In this document: positions 27,351-59,974 of the stretch, piece by piece
How the letters are laid out: every line of letters starts with the position of its first letter
How positions within the stretch are numbered: the first letter of the stretch is position 1
NCBI GenBank assembly: GCA_963803975.1
Contig: CAWDOY010000025.1
Coordinates: 64,001-128,000 of the forward strand
Source: an uncultured delta proteobacterium
Lineage (GTDB): Bacteria; Desulfobacterota; WTBG01; CAIYCZ01
DNA length: 64,000 nt
Direction: 5' to 3'
Notes under the pieces: model-generated
Seen by the model: the letters and a program-made list of their open reading frames with translations, nothing else
Database searches by the model: none
What the model was told of the DNA's origin: nothing
Translations under genes and position numbers: made by a program

Positions 27351-27353
27351 ATC

Positions 27354-39593: not shown

Positions 39594-40448
39594 TCATTCA
39601 TCAATGCACAGATATTTTGTCCAAGATACTCGGTTCTGCTGGATGTTATGCAACCGGTCCATTTTCATTGCGGAATTTTCTGGACATGCAGGCTGCGCGG
39701 TCTCTGGCATGCCCCCGTGTTCTTTTTCCCCTTGTTGCTGTTGAGGTTTCTGGCCATCATGCTGCTGAGGTTTCTGGCCATTTTGTTTTTTCTGTTTTTG
39801 GCTATTTTGCTTTTGCTGTTTCTGGGCAGCTGGCTGCTGGTGCTGCGGTTTCTGGACATTATGCTGTTGCGGAGTCTGGACATCCCTCTGCTGACACCCT
39901 TGCTCTTGCTGGTGCTGAGGAGTCTGAACACCCTGCTGGTGACGATCCCTCTCAATACGATTATACCGTTCTCGCCTTGTATCATCCCTTCTCTCATGCT
40001 GATACCAGTCATAACTGTCCCAATGCCGTCCTCGATCCCATGACTGCCAGTTGCTGTGGAAATCATCGTAGTGTATCCGGTGATATCCGGATGGCACGTA
40101 GTGAATATATTCCGGCGGTAGAACAATGATGACTTGCGGGACGATAGACGTCTCGATATAGTCCCAGCGCTCGTTGTAGTGGGAAGACCGGAACCAGCGG
40201 TCATTATAAAACCTGTACCAGTTGCCACCGTAGAAATAGACTCCATCATAATCCGGCACCATATAGACATAGCTTCTTCCACTGGGAACCACGTAGACAT
40301 CAGGCGGTGCGGCAAATTGCAAAGGCGGAGGTGCAACGATGTTAATGTTGACCTGCACCTGTGCCGACGCCTGTTTCGTCCCCCCGAGGCCAAACAAGGC
40401 CCCGAAAAGAACGACTAATCCCAATACACTGCACATACTTTTTTTCAT
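39594..40448 (-). CDS. Exported protein with Tyr/Trp-rich domain and Gln-rich repeat tail
   Basis: Signal peptide, V.VNINI..PPPL.FAAPP, +YFY.G.WYR....WFRS; 8-aa Q-rich repeats; true stop uncertain. Confidence 0.7.
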   Translation of the reverse strand: MKKSMCSVLGLVVLFGALFGLGGTKQASAQVQVNINIVAPPPLQFAAPPDVYVVPSGRSYVYMVPDYDGVYFYGGNWYRFYNDRWFRSSHYNERWDYIETSIVPQVIIVLPPEYIHYVPSGYHRIHYDDFHSNWQSWDRGRHWDSYDWYQHERRDDTRRERYNRIERDRHQQGVQTPQHQQEQGCQQRDVQTPQQHNVQKPQHQQPAAQKQQKQNSQKQKKQNGQKPQQHDGQKPQQQQGEKEHGGMPETAQPACPENSAMKMDRLHNIQQNRVSWTKYLCIDE

Positions 40449-40588
40449 TTTCTAACTCCCTTGCGGCCGAAGGCCGCATTACTACGACTTTTCCCATCAA
40501 AGAATCCACCCTACCCACTGGCAGTGTTTAATCTTCGTTTTGGCTTTGATGGGTATACTCTAATCTTCTCAACCTTATCGACCCATTC

Positions 40589-40816
40589 CTACTTTTTATG
40601 CTCGCCGACTATGTAGCCTGCGACCCCGCCTACGGCAGCACCGGCCGCTGCGCCAACAAGAGGGCTTCCTCCAACGGCTGCGCCAAGTACTGCCCCGCCG
40701 ACAGCGCCAATGCCTGCCCCGCTAAGAGTCGTTTGTTGTGTTCTGGACATGCCAGAACACCCGACGAACGTAAAAACAAAAACAAGAATAATGAAGACAA
40801 CTGCGATGCGGTTCAT
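40589..40816 (-). CDS. Glycine-zipper small lipoprotein (OsmB-like)
   Basis: Lipobox FVG-C; MS..QQ..LSGAGIGA.GGA.LGA...GAA.GA.+GG. Confidence 0.85.
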   Translation of the reverse strand: MNRIAVVFIILVFVFTFVGCSGMSRTQQTTLSGAGIGAVGGAVLGAAVGGSPLVGAAAGAAVGGVAGYIVGEHKK

Positions 40817-40852
40817 ATCATCTCTCCTTTTTAGCTTATAATGTTGTCAGGG

Positions 40853-41326
40853 CTATTTTTTAAGCGGACGACCAGCGATGCCCGTTTTTATATTTGGTTT
40901 GATCATTTCATCCCAGAGTACACTCGTCACGGGCTTTTCAATCTGATCCGGATGCATCTCGTAGTACTTGTCCACCCGGGCAACAACCTCATTCATTGGC
41001 ATATTAGCCATTCCTTCAACAACCTTTGGGACAAGACTCTCCCGTTTAAGCTCCGGGTACTTTTCCATCAGGTAAAATTCAATTGACACCACATGTCCGA
41101 AACCCCAGATAAAAGCCACCTTGCTATCGTGCGTCATCTTTTGCCAGAGATCCCCTTTTAGAATTGGCATTCCCAGGGAGTCTTGCAACCCTTTTTCAAC
41201 GGCTTTTCTGCCGGCCTTTTGCTCGGAAGTTATCCCTGCAGCCAGCACGTCAAACGAGCAGGCCATGAACGCAAGTAAAGGAACGATAATTACGCAACAT
41301 TTTAAAAATACTTTTTTCATATGCAC
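40853..41326 (-). CDS. Exported hypothetical protein
   Basis: Signal peptide; G..W..M..D.K.AF+WG...+D.YY..HPD....PV..V+W. Confidence 0.7.
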   Translation of the reverse strand: MHMKKVFLKCCVIIVPLLAFMACSFDVLAAGITSEQKAGRKAVEKGLQDSLGMPILKGDLWQKMTHDSKVAFIWGFGHVVSIEFYLMEKYPELKRESLVPKVVEGMANMPMNEVVARVDKYYEMHPDQIEKPVTSVLWDEMIKPNIKTGIAGRPLKK

Positions 41327-41497
41327 TTTCCTGGTTAAAAGTTTATGTATTTACCGGGGAGTCTATTCTCGGCTATCGTTCGCCCAAAATGGATCCCAAC
41401 AGATGTTCAACCTGCCCCAGCGAGTAAGACGCCTGCCCTGCGCATCTGCGGAAATATCAGCAGGGCTTTGGCTTGTTGAAGTTTCGGTGAAGCCATT

Positions 41498-41686
41498 TTA
41501 TTGCTTTATCGCTGTATAGCCTTTGCATAGTTGACAAGACTGGTGCATGTTTTTTTGAAATTTATTATGCTCCTGCCGAGTTCTGCACCAGTGTCTCCAC
41601 CCCTCCCAGAACCACATAATTATCAGTCCAATTATCAGTGACCATAGGAGATGCATTGGCTGAAAAAGACCATCAAACATTTTCAT
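41498..41686 (-). pseudogene. TatA/E-like small gene, degenerate or indel-split
   Basis: MFDGLFQPMHLL..L++.L++ then, in a shifted frame, G......G.ELGRSI.NFKK. Confidence 0.45.
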
Positions 41687-41701
41687 TCCTCCGGTTAATT
41701 G

Positions 41702-41902
41702 TTAGTGTTCTTCAGCAGAGGCGATAGGGCTGTTTGCCTGCTTTGGAGTAAATAATAAATTATTACCCCGGTGTTGGGCGCCCTCTTTTTCTTCAAAAAG
41801 CATATATTCATCAAATACGTCACAAACCGGGTTGAAACACAACCTCCCATAAGCTGTGTCTATCAATTCATTATTGCAAACCGGGCATCTATTCTCAAAC
41901 AT
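41702..41902 (-). CDS. Small protein with CPVC...C.NP.C zinc-ribbon-like motif
   Basis: 66-aa ORF with GGGGG RBS and four Cys. Confidence 0.5.
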   Translation of the reverse strand: MFENRCPVCNNELIDTAYGRLCFNPVCDVFDEYMLFEEKEGAQHRGNNLLFTPKQANSPIASAEEH

Positions 41903-42174
41903 ACGTACCCCCTATCCCTTATTTGATCCTGCCATCGGTATAAAGTGATTGGCGAGTCTGAGAAAGAAGACCAACCACGATCAGAACCACTACGAAGTGA
42001 ATTAAATGCATACTGCACCTCCCTGTTCTCTGAGGAATACAGATTTAGGGACAGTTCCGGTTCTGCTCTGTTGAGTACCGTCGATTTCAGATGTACGTTA
42101 ACCGCTATACTTTCAAGCGCTTGGCAGTGTCTGCGGCGACGTGACACCAAACGGGCGCAACCCGTGGCTGCATA

Positions 42175-42330
42175 TTAAATCCGACCCATCAGCAGCAGGA
42201 TGACTAAAATAATAAGGACCAATCCAAGTCCACCGCTGGGATAGTACCCCCATTGCCGGCTATGTGGCCAGGTGGGCAAAGCGCCCAACAGCATTAAAAT
42301 TAAAATGACAAGCAAAATTGTTCCGAGCAT
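42175..42330 (-). CDS. DUF3309 family small membrane protein (51 aa, absent from ORF track)
   Basis: Manual translation MLGTILLVILILMLLGALPTWPHSRQWGYYPSGGLGLVLIILVILLLMGRI*; AGGAGG RBS. Confidence 0.9.
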   Translation of the reverse strand: MLGTILLVILILMLLGALPTWPHSRQWGYYPSGGLGLVLIILVILLLMGRI

Positions 42331-42347
42331 ATCGTTCCTCCTTCTAA

Positions 42348-42498
42348 CAGGTTGTTGAAAAAGTTGTTTTTCCCGGGCTGGTCAAAAATGCACAGTTGCA
42401 AGGCTCCCGAAATCCTCCGGAAGTGAGGCGTACTTCAGGGTACGCCGCAACGACGAAGGATAAGGGAAACGCCTCAGATGGGCGTTTTTCAACAGCCT
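42348..42498. repeat. ~150 bp MITE-like element, copy 2
   Basis: AGGTTGTTGAAAAA...TTTTTCAACAGCCT ends; collinear with 9103-9254. Confidence 0.75.
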
Positions 42499-42546
42499 TC
42501 TAAATAGCGCAATTGGTGACACCGTCTCTTTAAGCGCGAAGCTTCA

Positions 42547-42744
42547 TTACTTGTTCTTTTCCTCGGCTTTCTGTGCGGCATCATCCATTGCATTTTTAGC
42601 TTTATCAACGCTTTCATCAACCTTCTTGCCCGCCTTTTCCATGGTGCCTTCTTCCTTTTGGCAGCCCGAGACGGTGACGAAAAATACCAGAGCAACTATC
42701 ACGGAAAGAATCCCCTTGAGAAATGTTACCATTGATCTTTTCAT
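42547..42744 (-). CDS. Small lipoprotein (EG.MEKAGKK+D type)
   Basis: Lipobox VSG-C, amphipathic charged tail, GGAGG RBS. Confidence 0.8.
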   Translation of the reverse strand: MKRSMVTFLKGILSVIVALVFFVTVSGCQKEEGTMEKAGKKVDESVDKAKNAMDDAAQKAEEKNK

Positions 42745-42811
42745 TGTGACCTCCTTTTTAAGTAACAGTTTATACTGTAACCAACATTATGGGAAACTTC
42801 AGCATGCAGCG

Positions 42812-43387
42812 TTACTTTTTGATCTTCGTGAACTTTGCACCCTTCAGGGAAACGTCAAGCATGAGGCCCTTGGCACCAAAAACAAACGCTACGACCGGGT
42901 CCTTTAATGTAGTGGTGTCGAGCCGCTTGCCGCCGCCTACGTCAATAAGCGCCACGTTGCCGGTTACCCCTACTTCCCAGCCATCGATCTCCTTGAACTG
43001 CCTGAGCGCCTCCTCGGTCATGAAGGCTATGATAATATCCATCTGTTCTGCGCCAGCGGTGAATCCATAGGATCCGCCGACAAGATTATAGTACCCCTTC
43101 GACTTGCCTCCAATTCGAAGTACGCCCTGGCCGTACTCCCCGCCGACAATGAATCCTGCCTTGGTAACGCCGGACATCACCAGGAGCGCTTTCGCGGAAG
43201 AGGTAAGCTCTTTGGCACCATTGACCTCTTTATAGAATCGCTTCAGCGTCTGGTTGGCGTCTGCGTTGATCTCAGCAGCTGTCTTCGCGTACGCATTGTT
43301 GGAAAACGTGCCGAAGGTCGCTATCATTAAGCCGATGAAAATTAACAGTACTGTTTTACCCGAGTTTCTTTTTGCAAATGTTTTCAT
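42812..43387 (-). CDS. YSC84/SYLF-domain lipid-binding protein
   Basis: AKALLV...+.KAGF++GGEYG.G.L, S.G...G, FMT..AL..F, KGLM...SL.G.KFTK. Confidence 0.9.
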   Translation of the reverse strand: MKTFAKRNSGKTVLLIFIGLMIATFGTFSNNAYAKTAAEINADANQTLKRFYKEVNGAKELTSSAKALLVMSGVTKAGFIVGGEYGQGVLRIGGKSKGYYNLVGGSYGFTAGAEQMDIIIAFMTEEALRQFKEIDGWEVGVTGNVALIDVGGGKRLDTTTLKDPVVAFVFGAKGLMLDVSLKGAKFTKIKK

Positions 43388-43528
43388 GGTTTTCTCCTTT
43401 TTAAGTAAAACGTTTTGTTTTAAAAAATTGGTTATTTGAAAAATGAAACGTGTTGCTTTTGACCACTACCTTTCTCCAACCTTCCTGCAACCTCCTTCTA
43501 ATTCAGCCCTTTACTGCCTGAACTGGGT

Positions 43529-44549
43529 CTAAGGGTTGACTCCTTCGTTCAGGATAATAACATCAACCCGCCTGTTCTGCTCTCGTCCTGCCGCGGTATC
43601 ATTGCCGGCCACCGGGGATTCTTCTCCAAACCCCTTGGTTGTAATACGACCCTTGCCGATCCCCTTAGCGACCAGCTTATTGCTCACGGCATTGGCCCGG
43701 TTCAGGGAAAGGTCGAGGTTAGTTCCCTCCGCCCCCGTACTGTCGGTATAGCCCTCGATGAGCACGCTGCGATCAGGGTATTCCCTCATAAAGGCAGCCA
43801 GCCTGTTTATTTCGTTATCAGCCATGGGAGACAGGGTGGCCGTGCCGGTGGCGAACAGCACATCGCCTATCGTCAGGACGATGCCCCGCTCAGTCATCCT
43901 GCCCTTCAGGGCGGCAATCTCTTGCTGCAGCTTATCCGCCTTGTCCGTGGCCTTTTCAGCCTTCTGTGTTTGGGACCAGGCTTCCGCGTTCGACTCTCTG
44001 GGCTGCCGCCTTTGACTCTCTGGCCGCAGCGTTCGACTCCCTGGCCTCCATTCTCGCTATTTGAGCCTCTCGGGTTCGGGACCAGGCTCTCGCGTTCGAC
44101 TCTCTGGCCGCCGCATTTGACTCCCTGGCTTCCGCGTTTGACTCCCTGGCTTCCATCCTCGCTATTTGCTCACGCCCACGCCCCTGAACTACCAACCGTT
44201 CGGTTTCCCTGCTGAGAGCCTTTTTCTCATTTTCTGCCATCTGCTCCTCAGCGGTGGCAACGGCGATCCGGGTTTTCATTTCCGCCAGGTAGGCCAGGTG
44301 ATCCATTTCATCATACTCTCTGGCCTGCTCAGCAGCATCGACAGCCCTGCCGGCATCCATCAGGGGAATCTGGGCATTGATTGCCACATTAGGATTCGCC
44401 CTGGCTTGGGCATACGCTGCTTTGGCGTTCGCCAAATGGTCCCTTGCCATCATTTCCTGCTGGGAGGGGCCGCATCCCGCAAAAATCATTAAGACCGGGA
44501 TGAAAAACCCGAACCCGATTTTAATCACACTGTGTATTTTGTTAGTCAT
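43529..44549 (-). CDS. DUF4398 + repeat coiled-coil + OmpA-like peptidoglycan-binding lipoprotein; indels in repeats
   Basis: Lipobox FAG-C; HLAYLA; TERG+VLT+GDVLF.TG, IEGYTDS.G, LS..RA.AV, GR.QNRRV. Confidence 0.9.
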
Positions 44550-44590
44550 TTTCTGTTCCTCCTTAAAGGGTTGTTATCTTGGATATGCGC

Positions 44591-44974
44591 TCAAGGTCTT
44601 GGCGGCAGGTTCCGGATGTTTTGACGCATCTGTTCAGCGTCCTTTTTTGCTTTCTCGGCTTTAGCCTCGATGCGAGCACAGTCCGCGTCGACCGTCGCTT
44701 TCTCTGCCAAACGGGTGGCCCTCAGGTACTCAGCGTCTGTAAACGCCAGATTAGCCTGCGAGAGTTTATCCTCGGCAGTCCTCAAATCCACGGGGGTGTT
44801 TGTGCTCGCATTGCTTTCCCTGGCGACGCTGATGGCCTTCTCACTCTCGGATATTTTCATGGTTGCGGTGGAAAGGCTGCCGCTGGATGCGCAGCCCACC
44901 GTCAGCAACATGGCGAGGGCCCCCATGAAAAATAAAGGAAAAAACATCTGCCTGTTTGAAGTTTTGTGTTGCAT
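44591..44974 (-). CDS. DUF4398 domain lipoprotein
   Basis: Lipobox VG-C; A+..A....A....P.+L..AE.KL..A...Y..A.RLAE.A.VDA. Confidence 0.85.
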   Translation of the reverse strand: MQHKTSNRQMFFPLFFMGALAMLLTVGCASSGSLSTATMKISESEKAISVARESNASTNTPVDLRTAEDKLSQANLAFTDAEYLRATRLAEKATVDADCARIEAKAEKAKKDAEQMRQNIRNLPPRP

Positions 44975-45048
44975 GTGCTTACTCCTTTCTGCGACTGATT
45001 ACAGTGCACAATTGAAATCTTGTTGATGAATATTCACTTAAATTGTTT

Positions 45049-45507
45049 TTACTTTTTTGTGCCAAAAAAGAACGCCTTGGTCTCATCCTGTTTATCATAA
45101 CCACTTATATTGAGCTGAGAATAGGTAACATTCATCTGGCCGATAATAATGGTATCGATAAGATTTATTCCTTTGACATCAAATGTATATTTATCTAACG
45201 AGTTCTCAGTAATAACTTCATAGTTTGCAGTAAAAGAGATTCCGTCTTCATTAAACGCACCACTGCCTCCCACACCCACGACACCGCCATCAAAGCTGTC
45301 AACTATGAAGTTATCATCATCTTCAAATGTAAACGCATCATGTTTAACATCCCCTTTGCTGCAATAGTCTCCGGCATCATCTCTACAGAACGCCGTTATC
45401 TCATAGTCATTTCCATTAAGAGATACAAGCGTTACAGCATATGATGCTGAAGAGAATGTTAAAAACAAACCAGTAACCATGATTGCTATCATCATTAATT
45501 TTTTCAT
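45049..45507 (-). CDS. Exported beta-rich hypothetical protein
   Basis: Signal peptide ending SYA-V, 152 aa, two Cys. Confidence 0.7.
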   Translation of the reverse strand: MKKLMMIAIMVTGLFLTFSSASYAVTLVSLNGNDYEITAFCRDDAGDYCSKGDVKHDAFTFEDDDNFIVDSFDGGVVGVGGSGAFNEDGISFTANYEVITENSLDKYTFDVKGINLIDTIIIGQMNVTYSQLNISGYDKQDETKAFFFGTKK

Positions 45508-45679
45508 ACATGATTCCCTTTCTTATCTTGAAATTTCTATTACGTGGGTCCCCACCATCCTGTTTTCTCATGGTCAAGCATCAGGTTCGATCTCATGAGC
45601 CCGCAGCTTTCTGCCATTCTGCAGGAGCCTTTCGGCGCTGCGCAGGATAAACTCTGCGGTTAAAACATTTTGCCTCTGG

Positions 45680-45901
45680 TCACCCCTTTCTGTTCCCCAC
45701 GACCAGCAGCACGATGCCTCCCACGAGCGCAATAGCTCCGAGGATCGGCGGCAGGGGAAACGTTTTCGTTTTCTCAGCAGTCATCTGGATAGGACCGAGA
45801 TCGACGACCTTCTCTCTGGTTGTATACGTGATGCCCTGGTACGTGAACACCACGACGCCTACAGCGATCAGTATGATTGCAATTATGGTTTTTGTACTCA
45901 T
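45680..45901 (-). CDS. DUF3185-like small membrane protein
   Basis: LI..G+...YQGITYT.REKV+DLGP+...AEK.KT.PLPP+LG. Confidence 0.8.
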   Translation of the reverse strand: MSTKTIIAIILIAVGVVVFTYQGITYTTREKVVDLGPIQMTAEKTKTFPLPPILGAIALVGGIVLLVVGNRKG

Positions 45902-45939
45902 CTCGAACCTCCAATTTCCTTTTCTCGGTCAAGTGCTTC

Positions 45940-46089
45940 TTACACTGCTCGTCGGCCCTGAATGATGTTGACCAGCACCATGATAACGGCAACCACCATC
46001 AGGATGTGAACAAACCCTCCCATCGTGTAACTGGTCACCAACCCCAGCAGCCACAAAACTATCAGTATCACGGCAATTGTCCACAGCAT
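45940..46089 (-). CDS. lmo0937-family small membrane protein, copy 1 (49 aa)
   Basis: Manual translation MLWTIAVILIVLWLLGLVTSYTMGGFVHILMVVAVIMVLVNIIQGRRAV*. Confidence 0.9.
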   Translation of the reverse strand: MLWTIAVILIVLWLLGLVTSYTMGGFVHILMVVAVIMVLVNIIQGRRAV

Positions 46090-46175
46090 ATGATCCTCCT
46101 TTCAGTTTGCTCTTGGATTCACTGCCGGTTGGTTCAGTCCCGCACCAGCCGGCAGAGATCCAGAGTCTATTGACA

Positions 46176-46973
46176 CTACTCGATGGTCATCTGGTTGTTT
46201 ACGCTCTTCACGCCGTGAACGTCTTTCACGAATTTAGTGGCCAGATCCTTCTCGGACTCGTTTTTGGCCTTGCCACTCAACGTGACCGCTCCATCATTCG
46301 TCTCGACCTTGGTGTTGAGGGCGCTGGTCGAGCGATGATACAGCAACGTCATCTTGACCAGGGCGGTGATGGACGCGTCATCAACCGATTCGCCCACGTC
46401 ATCAATCTTTTCGCCCATTGTTTCGCCCGGTTTTACTGAAGTCTTAGCTACTGTCATCTTGTTTATCACGCTTTTGACGTCTTCTACATCCTTGGCGTAT
46501 TCGGTCGTCAGTTCCTTTTGTGCCTGGCTGGAGGCATTGCCGCGCAGGGTTACGATGCCTTTTTTGGCGGAAACCTTGGTCTGGTAGGCGCTCACGTTGC
46601 GATGGAACAGGAGCGTGGCTTTCACTTTTGCACTGAGCCACGCATCTGAGTTAGCGGCGGCGCGTACCCCTTTGATTTCCAGTTTGTTGTCAACGCTTTT
46701 GACCCCGGGCAGGCTCGCCACGGTCCCCTGAGCCAGCGCGCGGTTCATTTCTTCGGCGACAGTACCCGTCAAGGTGACAACGCCATCACTGGACTGGATT
46801 TTAATATCATCATCCTTGAGGTAGGTCTTGAACACATAGGACTTCCTGGCTGTTGATTCGATGCGGTCATCCGTCTCGGATGCGCGCAGAGGCACGCTGC
46901 TTACCAGCAGAGCGACCACAGCCACCATCAGTGGCACAAAATACATTGCTTTTATTGCTTTCATTGTTCTCAT
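46176..46973 (-). CDS. Triple BON-domain (OsmY-like) protein
   Basis: Three BON repeats: D..I...., GVVTL.G, V..V.N.+; signal peptide. Confidence 0.92.
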   Translation of the reverse strand: MRTMKAIKAMYFVPLMVAVVALLVSSVPLRASETDDRIESTARKSYVFKTYLKDDDIKIQSSDGVVTLTGTVAEEMNRALAQGTVASLPGVKSVDNKLEIKGVRAAANSDAWLSAKVKATLLFHRNVSAYQTKVSAKKGIVTLRGNASSQAQKELTTEYAKDVEDVKSVINKMTVAKTSVKPGETMGEKIDDVGESVDDASITALVKMTLLYHRSTSALNTKVETNDGAVTLSGKAKNESEKDLATKFVKDVHGVKSVNNQMTIE

Positions 46974-47079
46974 GGTACTCTCCTTTATGTTGTTGTATGT
47001 TGTTACGTTTATTTTCGTTTCTGTCTCCCTTGAAAAGAATATGAGCTGCCCCTTCACGCCTTTCTTCCGAGCATCTTCT

Positions 47080-47271
47080 TCACCTGCCCACATAAATCCC
47101 GGGGAAATTGGTTAAAACACCAAACACCCGCAATAGCCACAGAATCACTACAATAATCACGACGATATTCAGTATTTTCTTTATATTAGCATCCATCGGT
47201 ATGTAGTTATTAACCAGCCATAGAAGCACCCCAACGATAACCAGAACAAGAATTAATTGAATTAACGGCAC
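47080..47271 (-). CDS. Thivi_2564-like small membrane protein
   Basis: MPLI....VL+++GVLLWL+N.YIPM...IK.ILN.VV+I.V+LWLL. Confidence 0.85.
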   Translation of the reverse strand: MPLIQLILVLVIVGVLLWLVNNYIPMDANIKKILNIVVIIVVILWLLRVFGVLTNFPGIYVGR

Positions 47272-47428
47272 AGTGTTTCTCCTTTCTTATTTGTTGCAAT
47301 GTTCACAAATTATGTATGCGCGCTGGGTGGTGTCCCACTGCTGATACAATTTTTACATTGCTGGTTACCCGTTTCTCACTCTCATCCTTCATGTCGTCAG
47401 CGCGGTTTTGGTCATGATCTCCCGCTTA

Positions 47429-47578
47429 CTACACGGCACTCCGGCCTTGAATGATGTTGACCAGCACCATGATAACGGCAACCACAATCAGGATGTGAAT
47501 AAACCCTCCCATCGTGTAACTGCTCACCAACCCCAGCAGCCACAAAACTATCAGTATCACTGCAATCGTCCACAACAT
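47429..47578 (-). CDS. lmo0937-family small membrane protein, copy 2 (49 aa)
   Basis: Manual translation MLWTIAVILIVLWLLGLVSSYTMGGFIHILIVVAVIMVLVNIIQGRSAV*. Confidence 0.9.
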   Translation of the reverse strand: MLWTIAVILIVLWLLGLVSSYTMGGFIHILIVVAVIMVLVNIIQGRSAV

Positions 47579-47933
47579 ATGATCCTCCTTTCACTTGTTT
47601 AAACTGGCACAATCCGCACAGCGCCACTTCCCCTGCAATGATCCCGTATGCTGATATGCCTTTGCCCTGCTTGCACACCAAACACCTCATGATTTACGGG
47701 GTGCCGGGTTCGTAATGGATTGTTAATTAGGGCACATAATGTTGTAATAAATTGTCGCAGCGACTATTAATAAAATGACTTGTTCCATGATTACCCTCTC
47801 TTTGCTATTTCTCTTTTTCTGCACATATCACTCTCCTTTGAAAAAGCCTCAGTCAGCAAAAAAACTGAAGGGAACGTTTAGAATTGGGTTGTTCGATTGA
47901 ATAAATCTTAGCTTTAAATATCCCCATTGTCTG

Positions 47934-48278: not shown

Positions 48279-48290
48279 GAAGACTCTAAT

Positions 48291-48306
48291 TGCAAAGGGG
48301 TTGCCA
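48291..48306 (-). promoter_or_regulatory. Sigma-54 -24/-12 promoter, copy 1
   Basis: Minus strand TGGCAA-CCCCT-TTGCA matches TGGCA-N6-TTGCW with correct GG-N10-GC spacing. Confidence 0.8.
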
Positions 48307-51482: not shown

Positions 51483-51517
51483 TCCTTGTCCTCCTTTTCA
51501 ACTGTTTGAATTGTCTT

Positions 51518-51874: not shown

Positions 51875-51891
51875 TGGGAAAAACCGCCTCC

Positions 51892-52245
51892 TTACCGGCG
51901 TCGCACAAGAGCTCCGATAATCAGGCCGACCCCTCCTGTTATCAAGAGGCTGCGCCCCGGGTTCTGCCTGACGTATTCTCGTACCCTGGCATCTGCCTGC
52001 TCATAGTCGAACTGCCGAACGTACGTGGCTGATTGGTCCAACCACTCGGATGCCTGCTTTCCGTACTGAGCTATGCTGGATTGCGCGTCCTGATCTGCCG
52101 CTTTTTCGCCTAAAGCCTCAGCAACAGTATGCAACTTATCAGCAATAATATTTTTGACATTATCGAAGCCGGTTGACTTACCCGAACCTTGAGACTCTGC
52201 CGCGGGTTCTCCCGTTTCATCAACTACCCGATTGTTTATTCCCAT
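51892..52245 (-). CDS. DUF883-like hypothetical protein
   Basis: A..L+..A.Y+R..D....+..+..YVRQNPG.SLL+.G.VGL++G.L+RRR. Confidence 0.75.
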   Translation of the reverse strand: MGINNRVVDETGEPAAESQGSGKSTGFDNVKNIIADKLHTVAEALGEKAADQDAQSSIAQYGKQASEWLDQSATYVRQFDYEQADARVREYVRQNPGRSLLITGGVGLIIGALVRRR

Positions 52246-52290
52246 AGTTCACCTCATAAAAAGTTAAAGGGCGATGCTTGCAAAGCGACC

Positions 52291-52371
52291 TCATGTTTTA
52301 AGGAATGCCAGCAGGTCGGCGTTGAGCTGGTCTTTGTGCGTGTCCGCGAGGCCGTGGGGTGCGCCCGCGTA
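52291..52371 (-). pseudogene. 3' remnant of a non-heme haloperoxidase (alpha/beta hydrolase) gene
   Basis: Manual translation [26 protein letters not shown]; no upstream coding continuation recognised. Confidence 0.7.
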
Positions 52372-52461
52372 GGGGTTGCTTGCCCTCTTTGTCCCGTATT
52401 CCGAGCTCTTGTTATATCAACTCTTTGCTGATCATTAGCCTACCCCCCGCTGTGGATCGAC

Positions 52462-52674
52462 TCAGGTGCACCCACGCAGGAAAAATAGCACCAATAAGAT
52501 CGGGACCGGAACTCCCAATGCCCAAAGTAAAATCCACCCCACTTTCCCTTTTTCTGTTTTGGGGCGCCCTTTACTTTCTTTTTGTTCGCCCGACCCGCGA
52601 TCATGGGACTTGCCGCGTGCCCTCTGCTGAGAATCCCATGCCTTCAGTAGTTCTTTTTCTTGTTGTTTTGTCAT
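52462..52674 (-). CDS. Small protein with C-terminal GWILLW.LG+P+PILL TM motif
   Basis: 70-aa ORF, basic N-part, single TM ending LRGCT. Confidence 0.55.
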   Translation of the reverse strand: MTKQQEKELLKAWDSQQRARGKSHDRGSGEQKESKGRPKTEKGKVGWILLWALGVPVPILLVLFFLRGCT

Positions 52675-52711
52675 GATGCTTCTTCTTTATGATGATTTCA
52701 AAAAAATCCTT

Positions 52712-52891
52712 CTACTTGCCCACCACTTTCTTTACCTGGCCTATCTTTTCCTGAACTTTACCGCCTAAATTTTCTCCCTTGCCTTCGGCTTCCAGATCGC
52801 GATTCCCGGCTATTTTCCCGACGACCTCCTTTATCTTACCTTTTGCCTGGTGCATCTTGCCTTCTGCGTTGTCTTGTGTGCTTGATTTCAT
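52712..52891 (-). CDS. csbD: CsbD family general stress protein (59 aa, absent from ORF track)
   Basis: Manual translation MKSSTQDNAEGKMHQAKGKIKEVVGKIAGNRDLEAEGKGENLGGKVQEKIGQVKKVVGK*. Confidence 0.9.
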   Translation of the reverse strand: MKSSTQDNAEGKMHQAKGKIKEVVGKIAGNRDLEAEGKGENLGGKVQEKIGQVKKVVGK

Positions 52892-53097
52892 GGTATTTCT
52901 CCTGTTTGATTCTGGTTTGAGTCTTTTTTATCTATTTCTTTTTTTTCATGGGATCTTTGCCAGGTTTACTTTTAAACCGCTCCATCATCATCTGCCTGCC
53001 TTGATCGCCGTCTCATATCTTCTATCTTGTCCTGCTTTCGATTTTGCATCATGCAGCTATAAAACACTGTCAGGTCGCTCTCAACATTGAACACGCG

Positions 53098-53547
53098 TCA
53101 CCTCTTTACCACTAGAACCGGGATTTTGGTATCTTCGTGGATCACACCATAGGTAACACTGCCAAGGATCGCAGCTGCTAAAGCGCTTTGTCCATGGGAA
53201 CCCATAACAATAAGGTCTACCTTTGACTTCTTGGCCTCTTTCACAATCTCCGCAACAGGGTGTCCTGGTTTTATAACAGCCTTCGATTGAACATTTTTTG
53301 TTTCACACAGTTTCGTTATTTCTCCAGCATACCCTTCAGCAGCCTCTCGCAGATAATCCTCGATAGGTTCTATTACATGCTTTGCCGTCTGCGCGGCAGG
53401 AACTGTCTGGCCCATAAATGAGCGTTGATCAATAACGCTCAGAACAATTACCGAAGCTTTCAACTGTTTTGCAAGATCAACCCCATACCTTGCTGCCTTT
53501 TGCGCTGTCTTTGACCCGTCTGTCAGCACAAGAACCTTTGAAATCAT
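53098..53547 (-). CDS. Universal stress protein
   Basis: KVLV.TDGS..A.KA, G.P..EI+..A....VDLIVMGSHG, LGSV...V+....PVLVV. Confidence 0.93.
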   Translation of the reverse strand: MISKVLVLTDGSKTAQKAARYGVDLAKQLKASVIVLSVIDQRSFMGQTVPAAQTAKHVIEPIEDYLREAAEGYAGEITKLCETKNVQSKAVIKPGHPVAEIVKEAKKSKVDLIVMGSHGQSALAAAILGSVTYGVIHEDTKIPVLVVKR

Positions 53548-53601
53548 GATCACTCCTTTAAAATCTCCAAATTTAATCTGCAAACAATTTGACTCGTGGC
53601 C

Positions 53602-54279
53602 TCATGAAGGACATTTTTCCGGCGGTTCTTCGCAATAATTTCTTGTATCTATTCCCCCCCCAAACAAACGCTGTCTTCCACATGACGCGCTAAGGGGTAT
53701 TGACAGCATACTCACTATTTCCTGCTTGGTGAGCGGAAGGTATATATTGACCTCCGTAGCTTGTCCCAGCCGTCTCTCTATTTTCATGCTCCCCTGATGC
53801 TGTTTGATAACGCGGTAACCTATCGGGAGAGCCGGACCCTTGCCCTGATTACCGGTTATATAGAATGTCTCAAATATTTTATCTTTAATCTTCTCATCAA
53901 TAACTACGCCTCTATCTGCAAGGGAAATGAATGCGCATGCACCTACCATAGAATCGTCCCCATCGAGAAGAGATTCGATTTCAAAATTGACCTGGTTGAT
54001 ATTCAGTGAAAATTTGCCGCTGCCGGGCATTGCATCCATTGCATTCTTTAAAAGGTGTGTCACTGCTTCTTTCATAAGGGCCATGTCTGCCATGATCCTC
54101 AGGTTTTTTTCTAAAAGTGTTATTGTTATGTCAATATCCCGGTCAACATACTGTGGCAACAAACCCCCCACCATTCTCGTAATCTCGTTGAGATCCGTCT
54201 CCTTCAACCGCTGTTTCTCGTCAAGGCTGAAAGCGGGGAGGATTTTAATTTGGGGTTGTTTTTGATAACTCGCTATCAT
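53602..54279 (-). CDS. HATPase-only histidine-kinase-like protein (no H-box; degenerate G boxes)
   Basis: DLNE+, HLL.NAMDAMP..G, D.G..I...I..KIFE.F, ++KQH.G, T.V.IYLP. Confidence 0.7.
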   Translation of the reverse strand: MIASYQKQPQIKILPAFSLDEKQRLKETDLNEITRMVGGLLPQYVDRDIDITITLLEKNLRIMADMALMKEAVTHLLKNAMDAMPGSGKFSLNINQVNFEIESLLDGDDSMVGACAFISLADRGVVIDEKIKDKIFETFYITGNQGKGPALPIGYRVIKQHQGSMKIERRLGQATEVNIYLPLTKQEIVSMLSIPLSASCGRQRLFGGGIDTRNYCEEPPEKCPS

Positions 54280-54497
54280 TTCACACCTCCAAAGCTATTT
54301 AGTTGGACTCGTTGAATAAGCAAGCCTGCCCCGCAGTCCTTCAAGAGCTTCAGCACTGCCGGAGTAAGCAAATACTCCTCGTCCGTTGGCACCTGCTCTG
54401 AAACCGCTTCAATAAGATCATACAGGGTTGTTGCGACATGAACTGATGGTCTTTGCTTTTGCCGGTACTCCAGAAAGTTACTCGTAACTGTCAGCAT
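54276..54497 (-). CDS. Small hypothetical protein
   Basis: GGAGG RBS, overlaps next start (ATGA); TTLYDLIEA+SE.+...E+.L+..+V..LL. Confidence 0.6.
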   Translation of the reverse strand: MLTVTSNFLEYRQKQRPSVHVATTLYDLIEAVSEQVPTDEEYLLTPAVLKLLKDCGAGLLIQRVQLNSFGGVK

Positions 54498-54630
54498 TTT
54501 TCCTCCCTTTAATCCGGGCTACGGTAAGTAATCCGGAAGCTTTTACAGCAAATTTACTGCTATTGTCATGAACATTCATATACGTATTTTGCAGGAGCAC
54601 TGGGTACAACTCTCATGATCTATTCGATGA

Positions 54631-54888
54631 TTATTCAATGTTCCCCGCATACCCCTGGAACATCACGTGAGCATTCTGCATAACCTGGGTTATTGGAACA
54701 ATCCTGCCGTCCTCAACAATGACGGGCAAAGGCCCTTTTCCATATAAACGTATCAGTTCATTAAATCCCGCTTCATTTTTGCCGACATCCACCTCTCTGT
54801 AGTCAATGCCTTTTTCATTAAAATACTGTTTTATAACGCTGCAGTAGGTATCTGGGGACGTCGTATAAATTTCTCTTTTTCTGCACAT
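54631..54888 (-). CDS. Glutaredoxin-like protein lacking the N-terminal active-site Cys
   Basis: IYTT.PDTYC..+K.YF..KGI.Y.E+DV.......EL....G...+PVI. Confidence 0.7.
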   Translation of the reverse strand: MCRKREIYTTSPDTYCSVIKQYFNEKGIDYREVDVGKNEAGFNELIRLYGKGPLPVIVEDGRIVPITQVMQNAHVMFQGYAGNIE

Positions 54889-54975
54889 ATCACTCTCCCT
54901 TGAAAAAGCCTCAGTCAGCAAAAAAACTGAAGGGAACGTTTAGAATTGGGTTGTTCGATTGAATAAATTTTAGCT

Positions 54976-55341
54976 TTAAATATCCCCATTGTCTGTCAGG
55001 AAAGTTTGACACTTTGTGTAGGGAATGTTTGATTGATTAAGCTCCTCCATTCCCGCCGGGTGGAAAACGGTGTGGAACATCATTTCATAGGGCTCTTGGA
55101 GAAGGTTCATCGCCCCCCGAAGTACCTTGAAACGCCCTGACTTCAGGTGGCTCTTAAGGTTCTCCTGGGTATCCCATTCCTCAAGAAGACAGAGTTCATT
55201 TTCATCCTCCATACTCTGGCAAAAGTCGCAGCGCCGGCATCCCTTCTCCGTCCTTATGGAGCCGATCAGTGAAGCAATCGTCTGTGACAGCTCCATGCGC
55301 TTCTCAGAAAGAACCTTCATTCGTATGATGACCAGGATCAT
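54976..55341 (-). CDS. ABM-family protein, copy 2
   Basis: Near-identical to 47934-48278. Confidence 0.8.
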   Translation of the reverse strand: MILVIIRMKVLSEKRMELSQTIASLIGSIRTEKGCRRCDFCQSMEDENELCLLEEWDTQENLKSHLKSGRFKVLRGAMNLLQEPYEMMFHTVFHPAGMEELNQSNIPYTKCQTFLTDNGDI

Positions 55342-55353
55342 GAAGACGGTAAT

Positions 55354-55369
55354 TGCAAATGGTCTGCCA
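55354..55369 (-). promoter_or_regulatory. Sigma-54 -24/-12 promoter, copy 2
   Basis: Minus strand TGGCAG-ACCAT-TTGCA. Confidence 0.8.
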
Positions 55370-55469
55370 ACAACCGTGAAAAAATCAGAAGTTTTGAATC
55401 ATCCTTTAATAACAGGGGGTTAGATTGAATAGAAGAGAACAGCAGAGAAGTATGAAATGATCTGTTTGG

Positions 55470-55503
55470 CCTCAATATTTGGTGGAACCTCAACATATTG
55501 AGG
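55470..55503. promoter_or_regulatory. Pair of palindromic sites (candidate UAS), copy 2
   Basis: CCTCAA-TATT-TGGTGG and CCTCAA-CATA-TTGAGG. Confidence 0.6.
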
Positions 55504-55528
55504 GATACTTTGAAGGGAGGCGGACAGT

Positions 55529-57508
55529 CTAATCTGGTTCTTTTGTCTCCGGCCGGACTATCCCGAGCTTATGCATCCTCGCTCTCAAGGTGCTCGGGTG
55601 GAGGCCCAGGATCGCTGCGGCCCCGTCCTTTCCCTCGATGCGCCATCGGGTTTCCGAAAGGATTTTAAGAATTTGGTTTCGCTCCGTCTCTTCCAGGGTT
55701 CTCACGGCGGATGAAAGCGGGGGGGATGAAATCTCCAGTTTATCTGCCAGCTGCAAAACCGGCCCGGGGCACAAGATCACGGCCCGTTCAATGATGCTTT
55801 CCAGCTCCCGGACGTTCCCGGGCCACGGATAATCCTGCAGCGCCTTCATCGTCTCCTTCTGGATCGACGTGATCTGTTTGCCCAATTTCCTGGAATACCG
55901 CTCTATGAAGGCCTGGACCATCAGCGGGATGTCTTCTTTCCGCTGCCGTAGTGGCGGGACAGTGATGGGGAAGACGTTGAGCCGATAGTAAAGGTCCTGC
56001 CGAAACCGGCCCTTGCGGACCTCTTCCTCAAGGTTTCGATTGGTCGTTGCCACGATCCGCACATCGACTTTGATGGTATGGGACGAGCCCAGGCGCTCAA
56101 ACTCGTTATGCTGGATCACCCGGAGCAGCTTGGCCTGCATCTCCAGCGGCAGCTCCCCGATCTCGTCCAGGCAAAGGGTGGAACCATTGGCGATCTCGAA
56201 CCGGCCTATCTGCCGGGTATCGGCCCCGGTAAATGCCCCCTTCTCCCGGCCGAACAATTCGCTCTCGATCAAATTGCCCGGCAGGGCAGCACAGTTGACG
56301 GTGATCAGCGGCCGATCCTTGCGGGGACTCATGTTGTGGATGGCGGCAGCGATCAGCTCCTTTCCCGTACCGGTCTCACCGAGGATGAGGACCGTTGTGT
56401 TCGCAGGAGCAACCTGCTCCGCTCGATAGAGAACATACTTGAGACCATCACTTTGCCCGATAATATGCTCAAATTGATGTTTCATTTTGATCTCTTGACG
56501 GAAGTAAATATTCTCGGCCTCGAGTTGGTCTTTCATTGTTTTGATTTCAGAAAGAGCCGTCCGAAGTTCGACAGCTTGTCGTTCCAGTTCGTTGTGAGAT
56601 TTTTGTAAAGCCTCTGCTGTAAGTTTCCGTTCAGTGATATCGCGGATGTTACACTGAATCACTTTATGATGATTAACCAGATAGACATTACTGACAAATT
56701 CCACGGCAATTGTCCGCCCGTCTTTCGTCTCCAGCGGTAAATCATGGTAGCGAACATATCCTTTGCTCTTCAATTCCGAAGAGGTGGCTTTCGATGCTTC
56801 AATATCTCTAAAGGTGCCAATTTCCCAGAGTTTCTTCCCTAAGAGCTCCTCATGTGAATAACCCAACATTTCTACCAAGAATGGGTTAACATCCGCTATT
56901 TGTCCTGTCTCGGCATCGAGGATTAATATTCCATCTTGGGCTGCTTCAAAGAGACGGCGGTAGCGAGTTTCAGAATTCTTTAGCGCCTCCTCCATCTTCT
57001 TGCGCTCGGTGATGTCCACCATTACGGCGCACACCGCACCGGGCATATCCGTGTGCTGAAGGGCACTTATGGAAAGTAAGACAGGTACGGAATTTTCACC
57101 TCCGGTCTGTAAGGCCAGTTCCCCCTTACTGTTCCCCTTTAAACCCTGCTCAACCAATGCCTCAAATAATTGAAGGTCTGTTGATGAAATGTATTGGTAG
57201 ATTGAAGATCCTATTACTTTTTCCAGAGACTCTTTGACGATATCTGCAAAACGTTGGTTACAGAAAAGGATCGTGCCGTCGGAGGCCAGGGTGACGGCCC
57301 CTTCGTTCATGGTTTCGACCATGACCCTGTAAGGATGATCGGCGCCCGATAGGGTAAAGACCCGATCTCCTTCCGCCGTTGAGACAACCAGACCATCCAC
57401 CTCACCGCTTCGGATAGCGCGCAGCGTTTCCTCGGCTTCCATCATCCGCGATGTGAGTTCCTGCAACTCATCCAAAAGTTGCTGGCGTGTTCTATCCGAT
57501 TTGTTCAT
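55529..57508 (-). CDS. PAS-PAS sigma-54 enhancer-binding protein (FhlA/NifA-like AAA+ and Fis HTH)
   Basis: [62 protein letters not shown]. Confidence 0.96.
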
Positions 57509-57518
57509 TGATTCGTAC

Positions 57519-57857
57519 TCATGAATTCTTGGGTTTCAGATCGATGCCTACAAGAAACCTTTCCGTATCCGACATGTCGCCGATGAGCTTCCGGAGCGGC
57601 AGGGGGAGTTTCTTGATGAGCGTTGGGGTGGCAATAATCTGCTCTCCCTTGGCCAGCTTGGGCTGCTGGTAGATGTCTATCACCTCGAGTTCGTAGCGGC
57701 CTGCCAGGTATTTTTCACAGAGTTTCTGGACATTGGCGATTGCCAGGGTTGACTTTGGGGTCATCCCTGTAACATACAGCCGAAGAACGTACTTTGCCCG
57801 GTCTCGCTTCGCTGCCGCTTTTTCGAATTCCTCAGTGCTCGTTTTCCCTCTTTTCAT
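57519..57857 (-). CDS. kaiB: KaiB-family protein (second copy)
   Basis: [14 protein letters not shown]+.N+..+CE..L.GRY.LEVID+.QQP.LA...QIIATPTL+K.LP.P+R++IGD+S. Confidence 0.95.
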
Positions 57858-57889
57858 TCTCCATCGCTGTTACTCCAAAATTGATTTTA

Positions 57890-58222
57890 TCATCCGGAGA
57901 CAGAACGAATGTCGAGTCCCACCAGCACGCGCTCTGTGTTGGCCAGATCTCCGATAATCTTTTTAAGCGGTTCAGGAAGCTTCCTGACCAGTGTCGGTAT
58001 GGCAATAATCTGGTCCCCTTTGGCAAGCTGGGGATTCTTTAAAAGGTCTATCACTTCAATGCGGTATTTCCCCGCAAGGTGCTCTTCGCAGATCTTCTTT
58101 AAATTGGCAAAGGCCGTAATCGATTTCGGGGTCTGACCGGCTACATATAACCGGAGATTCCAGATTTCTTCTGTCGCATCGGTCTTTGCTTTCTTCCCCT
58201 TTCCTGGTGAGACAGCTTTCAT
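57890..58222 (-). CDS. kaiB: KaiB-family protein (first copy)
   Basis: [43 protein letters not shown]+A+[10 protein letters not shown]. Confidence 0.95.
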
Positions 58223-59974
58223 CTTACTCTCCTTTCCCTCTTCTTTTTCGAGCGCTTCGCCGGCGGAGCTGAAGGTTTCCCCTTGCGAAGATGCGCCATT
58301 TCCAAACGGTCTTCTGCCAGGACAGCTTGTCTTTTTTGCTCTTCTTCCGCCATCAAATGCACCTCTTCAGTTTCCACATCGAACTCGGCACGCAGCGCTG
58401 CGATCTTTGTTTCCAGGGCATTCCTCTTGCGCTCCTGCTCGCGGAGCCTGCGATCCGCCTCACGCCGGCATGCCAGCTCAGAGGCCTTTTCCCCGGCTTC
58501 CTGGGCTGCCCGGGCACTGCCGGTTAATACCTCGCCGGAACCGGTATAGATGTCGATCAGGTCAATGCCCTGGTTCGTGAGCAGGAACTCTTGAATCTGG
58601 TTGGAGTGGGCCATGCCGCGGGACTTCAAAATGTAGAGGCCCCGGTTGCGTTCCCCGTTGAGTTCGATATCCCGGAGGAGAAGCCACGTATCGATCAGAG
58701 AAGATATCTCTTCGCTCGTGTGTTCAAGGCTGCCTCCAAAATGGGTGAGGTCCGTAAGGAAAGTAGAGATCTTTTTCATCTTCAAATAGTCGATCAGGCG
58801 CGTTAAGATGGATTTGACCTCTGATGCTGTTCCCGCGGCGCTCAGGTTGCTGATCGGGTCTACAATGAAAACCTGGGGATTGAACTCCTCGATCACCTTG
58901 TGGAAGGTGACAAGATGCATCTCAAGGCCGTAAAGCGAAGGCCGGGCTGAATGAAACTTGAGAAGCCCCTTCTTCACCCACCGGGCGAGATCGATGCCGA
59001 TGGAGCCCATGTTCCGGATGATCTGGCTGGGCGATTCCTCGAAGGCAAAATACAGGCAGCGCTCACCACGCCGGCAGGCGGCGTCGGCAAAGGTAGCCGA
59101 CAAACTTGTTTTGCCTGTGCCCGCCGTACCGGAGACGAGGATGGTGCTGCCCCGGTAGAACCCCTTCCCATCAAGCATTGCATCCAACTTGGGGACGCCC
59201 GTGGAGATGCGCTCCGTGGAAACGGGGTAGTCGAGCCCCAGGGAAGTGATGGGCAGGATAGAGAGGCCGCTCTCGTCTATCAGGAAGGGATACTCGTCGG
59301 CGCCGTGAGATGAGCCGCGGTACTTGACAATACGCAGGCGGCGGGTGGAAATTTGCTCCTCGATGCGGAAGTCGAGGAAGATCACGCAATCGGCCACGTA
59401 TTCTTCGAGCCCGTAGCGTGTCAGGAGTCTTGTCGCCGCTTTCCCCCGTAACGATGGCCGTCACACCGCGGTCTTTCAACCAGTGAAAAAGCCGGCGAAG
59501 CTCTGCCCGAATGATAGCGGCATTAGACAGCCCGGAGAAAAGTGCTTCTATGGTATCCAGGACAACCCGCTTCGCTCCGATGGAATCAATGGCATTCCCC
59601 AGGCGGATGAACAATCCTTCCAGGTCGTACTCACCCGTCTCCTCAATCTCGCTTCGCTCGATGTAGACGTGGTCCGTTGCGATGAGACCACGCGACATCA
59701 TGTCAGGGAGATCAAAACCAAGGGAGATGAAGTTCTTCGCGAGATCCTCCGGCGTCTCCTCGAAGGTCATGAAGACCCCGGGTTCTCCGTAATCCATGGC
59801 GCCCCGCATGAGAAACTCCATGGCGAAAAGTGTTTTGCCGCAACCCGCACTGCCGCAGATCAGGGTTGGCCTGCCTTTCGGAAGCCCTCCCTTCGTGATC
59901 TCATCGAGACCCTTGATGCCCGTCGGGCATTTTTCAAGAACATCAACATCATGTTTTGCCTTAACCATCGTCAT
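58219..59974 (-). CDS. kaiC: KaiC (double RecA domain; KaiC2-type SS site, C-terminal coiled coil); indel near 59425
   Basis: [66 protein letters not shown]. Confidence 0.96.

Follow-up and report, generated by a model that had tools for sequence, protein, structure and literature searches.

A locus in a 64,000-nucleotide stretch of contig CAWDOY010000025.1 (the window), from an uncultured delta proteobacterium whose 4.25-Mb genome assembly is 98% complete, encodes the clock-related proteins KaiC and KaiB ahead of a sigma-54 enhancer-binding protein (EBP) and about 16 kb of apparent stress and envelope genes. We propose, with a probability of roughly 0.55, that the EBP drives these adjacent genes through sigma-54, and that an N-terminal input module bound by the second KaiB (KaiB2) would let KaiC switch the EBP according to the energy state of the cell.

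The genes lie on the minus strand in the order kaiC (59974-58219), kaiB1 (58222-57890), kaiB2 (57857-57519) and EBP gene (57508-55529), with a gap of 10 bp between the last two. An initial annotation had described kaiC-kaiB-kaiB followed after 10 bp by a PAS-PAS sigma-54 activator with an intact GAFTGA loop, and the coordinates, domains and motifs bear this out. The kaiC gene is indeed present, but in the present assembly a single surplus base near 59428 breaks its reading frame, which the annotation did not mention. The annotation had also reported no kaiA in the window, and this extends to the whole of the 98% complete genome, where no match to PF07688 was found; the genome has one kaiC, two kaiB, one rpoN and 15 EBP ATPase domains. 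KaiC is of the KaiC2 or Rhodobacter sphaeroides type, with two ATPase domains carrying Walker A and EE motifs, Ser-Ser phosphosites (kept in 58 of 59 KaiC homologues) and a C-terminal coiled-coil tail. Its best solved chain is 8dba at 416 bits, compared with 221 bits for cyanobacterial KaiC, and the alignment to 8dba runs through residue 545, including the tail of about 50 residues. Of the two KaiB copies, KaiB1 is the nearer to R. sphaeroides KaiB (8fwj), while KaiB2, the predicted partner of the activator, starts with a helix and carries YQQ where the LKN motif would otherwise stand. The KaiB score lies under the cut-off of TIGR02654, which marks the cyanobacterial KaiABC clock.

The EBP is an FhlA-like protein of 659 residues comprising a PAS1 module, PAS2, Sigma54_activat, an AAA lid and an HTH_8 helix-turn-helix (HTH; 55609-55574). 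It reaches 399.7 bits against the FhlA equivalog, whose cut-off is 830, and has PAS domains where FhlA has GAF. GAFTGA is intact at residues 424-429 (56239-56222), and Walker A, Walker B, RxDLYYRL, GNVREL, the arginine finger and sensor II are all in place. The output encoded after kaiB is a sigma-54 activator domain plus HTH_8 rather than a histidine kinase. The input module, residues 1-170 (57508-56999), is predicted to fold into a long helix (8-34), a beta-hairpin (39-52) and a PAS domain, and conservation analysis picked out a motif at residues 24-38 (57439-57395). Foldseek and PDB searches with the module returned generic PAS matches only. Its G-E-V-D resembles the G-E-Y-D of the KaiC B-loop, which we mention as an idea only.

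Directly past the EBP gene lies an enhancer-promoter cassette. Enhancer 1 (55503-55470) is made up of the palindromes CCTCAA-N4-TTGAGG and, second in order, CCACCA-N4-TTGAGG, with a spacing of 18 nt; it lies 134 nt upstream of the -24 box of promoter 1, a sigma-54 -24/-12 element (55369-55354) located by motif and matrix, and an ABM-domain gene (55341-54976) follows at the head of array 1. A second copy of the cassette (48491-47807) contains a remnant of the EBP 3' end, enhancer 2 (48436-48403; two palindromes again 18 nt apart, 130 nt before the -24 box), promoter 2 (48306-48291; also by motif and matrix), an ABM copy (48278-47934) and the start of a glutaredoxin gene; the second site of enhancer 2 is now the symmetric palindrome CCACTA-N4-TAGTGG. 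The tandem palindromic enhancer and the ABM gene atop each array had been overlooked in the initial annotation, as had a glutaredoxin-like gene, an orphan HATPase gene and a Thivi_2564 gene. It had described two arrays, each headed by a consensus -24/-12 promoter: both sites are present, and are the top-scoring sites in the genome for a matrix built on 58 cassettes from relatives only, but they are copies of one 690-bp duplication (55558-54869 copied at 48491-47807, 92% identical), which starts in the final EBP codons and spans enhancer, promoter and ABM-domain gene, and promoters 1 and 2 are therefore not independent.

With the same 58-cassette matrix, the enhancer pair is found at only two places in the genome, the two cassettes here, and the loose motif TGGCA-N6-TTGCW has 20 occurrences across the 4.25 Mb (0.09 per 20 kb). 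The enhancer-to--24 spacing is 129-134 nt in 56 of 58 cassettes. Conservation over 73 cassettes is 0.89 and 0.94 for the palindromes, 0.85 for the promoter, 0.72 for the spacer and 0.57 and 0.63 for the flanks. The spacer contains an unstranded site (55383-55395) that resembles an integration host factor site; such a site is found in 53 of 73 cassette spacers, where shuffles give a mean of 16. The start codons of the ABM genes (55341, 48278) lie about 12 nt past the -24/-12 motif without a Shine-Dalgarno sequence, and by their position these genes would be near-leaderless. The ABM reading frame is decayed behind most relatives' promoters and is intact after only 16 of 64, suggesting that the cassette persists while the genes it serves change.

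Scanning GTDB genomes for EBP residues 1-170 yielded 72 related loci, mainly in uncultured Desulfobacterota-type metagenome-assembled genomes (MAGs), along with a planctomycete, Methylobacter and others; the nearest holders are sediment and wetland metagenomes. The loci hold 78 enhancer pairs, 71 of them with a promoter at the correct distance, and 22 of the 72 have two to four cassettes, while one relative (G171) has up to six and the present genome two. The synteny that the initial annotation had suggested looking for in other genomes is found: kaiB stands directly ahead of the module in 69 of 71 loci, and the enhancer and promoter come directly past the activator for 37 of 48 close HTHs, as against 1 of 12 divergent HTHs. 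Core stress families occur behind the first cassette in 22 of the 31 loci that offer 3 kb or more of DNA there, compared with 3 of 22 upstream of kaiC, and all 53 stress-family matches behind the first cassette share its strand (0 on the opposite strand). Within 2 kb of the promoter, 137 open reading frames (ORFs) were scanned and 62 matched Pfam, 37 of these being BON, CsbD, DUF3309, DUF5670 or OmpA/DUF4398. PEP-CTERM proteins are encoded directly behind the cassette promoter in three loci (L057, L067, L081), and in another (L042:14506-15369) the promoter lies immediately ahead of a sigma-70 gene. We considered positive autoregulation of kaiC and rejected it, as a same-strand cassette upstream of kaiC occurs in two loci only and is absent at the present locus.

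We also searched by pattern 300 genomes of the phylum, separate from the matrix training set. The palindrome pair was found in 15 and the C-terminal lineage of the EBP in 17, with both in 14, mostly side by side, and the reversed-pattern control gave 0. This co-occurrence is inflated by physical linkage and kinship, but it makes the EBP the obvious reader of the enhancer, and that the EBP reads the tandem palindromes we regard, on these genomic patterns, as highly probable.

The module appears to belong with Kai genes well beyond this locus. Among the related loci, kaiC too lies upstream in 49 of 52, and in 47 of 56 the module leads into a sigma-54 ATPase. In an unbiased sample, with at most 11 candidates scored per genome, the module was found in 18 of 300 genomes, and of the 19 matches that have DNA upstream, 16 come after kaiB, the other three being among the weakest. 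More widely, a search at E up to 1e-30 links the module to 3825 families, plain PAS matches among them. Looking at 76 of the 150 distant representatives listed, we found 44 histidine kinases, 3 HD-GYP, 2 sigma-54, 1 GGDEF-EAL and 1 LuxR protein, and 25 unresolved; a Pararhizobium plasmid, for example, has kaiC-kaiB-kaiB and then a module-bearing hybrid kinase. On this distribution, the module is a general Kai-associated input.

Tandem duplications at two loci (L047:3511-11788, L029:8222-11983) take in all or part of kaiB2 along with the module gene, hinting that the two act as a pair; one locus (L069) has kaiB1 only. Fusions of KaiB to an output were not used as Rosetta-stone evidence, since the in-frame KaiB2-EBP of L044 spans a run of N, and neither were 39 longer KaiB proteins, nearly all of them single-member clusters and several looking like frameshift read-through. 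One protein of 658 residues (P0143), probably also read-through, joins KaiB and the beginning of the module to a protein with SpoIIE phosphatase and HATPase parts, which suggests Kai input into an RsbU-type phosphatase.

The initial annotation had also proposed modelling the binding of Kai proteins to the activator N-terminus. In a complex prediction with two module copies, KaiB2 is predicted to bind, scoring 0.72 where the best of three controls scored 0.07. Of the calibration pairs, 116 of 157 solved ones and 2 of 215 mismatched ones came up to the mark; these figures are only approximate here, the job being unlike the calibration. The runs agree in at least 91% of contacts, with a predicted local distance difference test (pLDDT) of at least 79 for the partner, and the lowest-error contacts join KaiB2 residues 59-61, 36 and 40-41 to PAS residues 81-82 and 95-100. 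Residues predicted to be in contact include G35, D38, I99 and G100 of the EBP and I40, V59, D61 and Y63 of KaiB2. Conservation across 143 distant families is higher for the 41 EBP interface residues (0.73) than for the remaining ones (0.54; 0 of 10000 permutations). The KaiB2 side takes up 37 of 87 residues, in beta2, alpha1, alpha2 and the stretches 74-79 and 90-96; the AlphaFold KaiB2 monomer is of low confidence (pLDDT 61) and served for secondary-structure labels only. We assigned faces from two secondary papers, in which beta2 and alpha1 are the KaiA/CikA face (PMC6378743) and alpha2 the KaiC face (PMC6769508). The predicted interface spans both and therefore fits competition. It is probable, going by the model, that KaiB2 binds a dimer of EBP residues 1-170.

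In the mechanism that we propose, KaiB2 would be an anti-activator that holds the EBP off; with falling energy, ADP-bound KaiC would capture KaiB2, and the freed EBP would oligomerise on the palindromes and open the sigma-54 promoters. Such an energy-stress partner switch, not a 24-h clock, would work like the SigB energy branch or the anti-activation by NifL or PspA, with none of which it has proteins in common. That KaiC would bind KaiB when ADP rises is, by analogy, a little less likely than not: in R. sphaeroides, KaiB_RS binds ADP-bound KaiC_RS, inversely to ATP/ADP (bioRxiv 2022.11.28.518275). The release of the EBP by capture of its anti-activator is the least certain step, and the odds are somewhat against our having this part right.

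Several observations weigh against the proposal. The likeness among cassettes is partly shared descent (mean pairwise identity 62%), and the matrix behind the cassette scans was trained on 58 of these same promoters. A KaiB match was found in only 4 of the 15 enhancer-bearing genomes; of the 17 sampled genomes that have the EBP lineage, just 3 showed Kai-type EBPs, and ten EBPs with readable N-termini and no adjacent kai genes, mostly in genomes without a KaiB match, lack the module. The complex score is a model's confidence, obtained with alignments of our own in a job unlike the calibration; close cousins can pass such a test, so the score does not settle the choice of KaiB2 over KaiB1 or KaiC as the predicted partner, and 4 of the 13 positions that discriminate KaiB1 from KaiB2 fall in the interface, which is no enrichment. 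Pseudomonas putida KaiC itself binds the N-terminal PAS of its kinase (bioRxiv 2022.01.26.477890), making direct KaiC-PAS binding a possible alternative route here, and the PAS domains of KidA bind KaiB without blocking KaiABC assembly (PMC9478674). Array 2 is broken by gaps of up to 854 nt and by an unstranded, dispersed repeat (42345-42500), and paralogues of its distal genes on two other contigs (C48, C36) have neither the enhancer nor a sigma-54 box. Finally, kaiC is broken in the assembly, and one sequencing run (X3) has no deletion at 59428 (0 of depth 17).

The Kai-less EBPs share PAS2-AAA-HTH or AAA-HTH with the Kai-type ones at 80-97% identity, as well as the enhancer and, where the DNA is present, ABM, lmo0937, BON, AI-2E or csbD genes behind it. 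Their N-termini are another coiled coil and PAS or have no PAS1 at all, and those without any PAS1 retain enhancer and cargo (L164-L167, L169). Since the same EBP body, enhancer and cargo occur without Kai, the sigma-54 regulon exists without Kai, and Kai would be one exchangeable input. The initial annotation had the Kai module signalling through the activator to sigma-54; the gene linkage and the KaiB2 prediction favour this, but the ten Kai-less EBPs do not. The module seems not to be needed for activation, and the retention of targets by EBPs that lack it suggests negative control; that the module is absent whenever adjacent kai genes are absent supports a functional pairing. In a quick tree, Kai-type and Kai-less EBPs are interleaved in one clade (Shimodaira-Hasegawa-like approximate likelihood ratio test 98), with the module on two further ATPase lineages. 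The tree is weak (33 of 67 branches open, Kai-type rows over-sampled, and L069, L078 and L079 mislabelled Kai-less), and for this reason we claim no direction of domain swapping.

The main rival on the sign of control is a positive ternary wiring, in which KaiC-bound, fold-switched KaiB2 would offer its beta2 edge and activate the EBP, like KaiB on CikA. The lowest-error KaiB2-PAS contacts do involve beta2, part of the face that KaiA and CikA use, and CikA and KaiC bind cooperatively (PMC6378743), but the predicted interface also takes in alpha2, 74-79 and 90-96, which would clash with KaiC, and the module-less EBPs keep their targets; we consider this wiring rather unlikely. Another question is how far the EBP reaches. 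Promoters 1 and 2 may drive all 16 kb, but the EBP might drive promoter-proximal genes only, most of the 16 kb being read from RpoS-like sigma-70 promoters and merely sharing the island. The genome's six sigma-70-family genes, including an RpoS-like one on contig C53 and a split paralogue (62906-61449) beside kaiC, are in keeping with this, as are the long gaps, the repeat and the enhancer-less paralogous clusters. In the relatives, however, csbD, BON, lmo0937, DUF3309 or DUF4398-OmpA genes lie within 2 kb of the cassette and are often first, and any sigma-70 gene is present in only 1 of the 72 loci. A scan for generic sigma-70-like sites counted 27 against 21.5 +/- 4.8 by chance, terminator-like sites number 21 against 21.7, and the possible terminator hairpin behind the ABM gene falls short of significance (z -0.77). 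Such a limited reach is an unlikely account.

The Kai genes could also be passengers, with the EBP answering a small ligand in PAS2 and the module inert. PAS2-AAA-HTH is common to the Kai-less EBPs at 80-97% identity, and we count on the same side that many Kai-type copies have lost PAS2 or exchanged it; against this, the module and the kai genes are present or absent together and the predicted interface is conserved, and we find the passenger account quite improbable. We take much the same view of a daily hourglass timer that would have the stress genes cycling over 24 h. KaiC and KaiB1 belong to the R. sphaeroides type, which behaves as an hourglass in vitro, but there is no KaiA, the nearest holders are sediment and wetland metagenomes and Desulfobacterota-type MAGs, the distribution is patchy and mobile (18 of 300 genomes), and Pseudomonas KaiC acts in stress resistance.

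It is improbable, too, that kaiC is a true pseudogene in this strain and the Kai input dead. The frameshifted copy is the sole kaiC, and no read set of the strain was found (best share 0.46). Both halves, however, are 98-99% identical to the intact kaiC of locus L021, and kaiC is in frame in all 55 homologous loci where both halves could be placed. The extra base is missing from the contigs of three of four runs (X1, X15, X16). In the window, rpsA, aroA, pheA, a lipase gene and DUF4398-OmpA are all split as well (22951-30460, 38150-39194, 43529-44549), as is one of the 15 EBP ATPase domains in the genome; the assembly seems rich in single-base errors, and the kaiC frameshift is probably one of them.

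The genes behind the EBP comprise 28 co-oriented ORFs from 55341 down to 39594. Most of the family names given to these 16 kb in the initial annotation hold, but its DUF3618 has no Pfam match, its DUF3185 and DUF883_C are sub-threshold, and its second DUF883-like ORF (50958-50689) has no match. The families matched are CsbD, BON (three times), Usp, holin-X, AI-2E, DUF3309, DUF5670/lmo0937 (twice), DUF4398 (twice), OmpA, Ysc84 and an OsmB-like glycine zipper. Array 1 (54888-48556, minus strand) runs from the glutaredoxin-like gene through a 73-aa ORF, the orphan HATPase_c gene, Usp (53547-53098), CsbD (52891-52712), a 70-aa ORF, the DUF883-like gene (52245-51892), holin-X (51874-51518) and 157-aa and 89-aa ORFs to a gene for AI-2E plus B12-binding-like domains (50430-48556). 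Array 2 (47578-39594, minus strand) begins with lmo0937 (47578-47429), Thivi_2564 (47271-47080), a triple BON/OsmY gene (46973-46176) and a second lmo0937 (46089-45940), continues with a DUF3185-like gene, a 152-aa ORF, DUF4398, the frameshifted DUF4398-OmpA gene and a Ysc84/SYLF lipoprotein, and ends with a small lipoprotein, DUF3309, a 157-aa ORF, an OsmB-like gene and a 284-aa ORF. Although the general-stress marker genes csbD, OsmY/BON, OsmB and lmo0937 are present, the label "general stress" is a putative one taken from family names. Two RNA runs (X15, X16) gave contigs over the kai, EBP, BON and DUF883/holin genes, but these come from mixed relatives and carry no strand, level or transcript span, and we did not use them.

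The repeat within array 2 has 94 BLAST hits in the genome and a fold z of -2.6; it resembles a miniature inverted-repeat transposable element or a repetitive extragenic palindrome, has no Rfam match and may interrupt read-through. No Rfam or tRNA matches were found in the window. Past array 2, co-oriented small genes for a LapA-domain protein, a 72-aa membrane protein and a SpoIIAA-like protein (36892-37921, minus strand) may extend it. Paralogous envelope clusters without the enhancer (C48:20262-29387, C36:68341-71890 and C42:86334-88681 of the present genome, G000) encode Ysc84, OsmB-like, OmpA and BON-LysM-like proteins and small lipoproteins, with MscL- and aquaporin-like proteins recognized by eye. 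On the other side of the locus, the split RpoD/RpoS-like sigma-70 gene (61449-62906, minus strand) is broken by a frameshift, is 50% identical to its C53 paralogue and lies between a Usp gene and kaiC. A 200-bp duplication (60288-60489 and 61250-61450; 90%) of the stretch just past it flanks a plus-strand cell-wall hydrolase gene.

Stress marker genes of this kind are otherwise under SigB, RpoS or EcfG. The marker genes of those regulons (csbD, which is under EcfG according to PMC7083833, OsmY/BON, OsmB-like, lmo0937, Usp and YtxH) recur in the relatives, but here sigma-54 plus the EBP would read them, from two cassettes only in the genome. Operons of kaiC, kaiB and a PAS/histidine kinase are known from Rhodopseudomonas palustris and R. 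sphaeroides (PMC4794148; bioRxiv 2022.11.28.518275), R. sphaeroides being the sole system where ADP-dependent KaiB binding and an hourglass phosphorylation cycle are known (the latter source). They have in common with our locus a KaiC2-type protein with the two serines and coiled-coil tail, the lack of KaiA, and a PAS protein right after kaiB; here there are two kaiB genes, and the output is not a kinase but a sigma-54 AAA+ activator that has an enhancer and targets of its own, its module being shared with the Pararhizobium kinase. In Synechococcus, the PAS region or output protein of KidA, CikA and SasA likewise docks on fold-switched KaiB via beta2 (PMC9478674; PMC6378743), but those proteins are a cyclase and kinases acting via RpaA, whereas here the predicted KaiB partner is itself a DNA-binding activator. 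The Pseudomonas KaiC-histidine kinase modules similarly tie a non-circadian KaiC to stress through a neighbour's N-terminal PAS (bioRxiv 2022.01.26.477890), but in those modules KaiC itself contacts the PAS and the regulators are not DNA-binding proteins, where we predict KaiB2 and a DNA-binding EBP. Among the Desulfovibrio one-component sigma-54 regulons, an EBP beside its own palindromic site and -24/-12 promoter is familiar, and DVU3305 and DVU3381 of D. vulgaris are listed with stress targets, with no kai link in the available part of that paper (PMC4641369).

The kaiC-kaiB-PAS/histidine kinase operons (PMC4794148), the PAS partners of KaiB (PMC9478674) and Desulfovibrio EBPs with stress targets (PMC4641369) are thus already known. 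The present analysis adds a complex prediction with controls, a test of the enhancer across the phylum, EBP versions without Kai, and the duplication and frameshift. The literature searched, which left most subscription papers and supplements outside, yielded no link from Kai to sigma-54, and Kai proteins are not mentioned in PMC12316311.

More broadly, and only tentatively, KaiBC outside the cyanobacteria may be an energy-charge switch whose standard outlet would be an undescribed KaiB-binding helix-hairpin-PAS module, carried in thousands of families by kinases, cyclases, phosphodiesterases, LuxR proteins and sigma-54 activators; in these anaerobes it would partner-switch into a general stress response based on sigma-54, which would be the fourth type after those of SigB, RpoS and EcfG. 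The locus bears on what non-cyanobacterial KaiBC control and on how the Kai state leaves the complex. Sensor, predicted contact with named residues, DNA-binding activator, site and targets all lie within 5 kb and could be rebuilt in E. coli or in vitro, and because the module heads many Kai-linked outputs, one experiment would bear on the whole class. In addition, the locus marks out a candidate sigma-54 stress regulon in uncultured anaerobes, one whose sensors can be exchanged, and, if our reading is true, clock-like proteins would gain a direct, testable route to gene switching.

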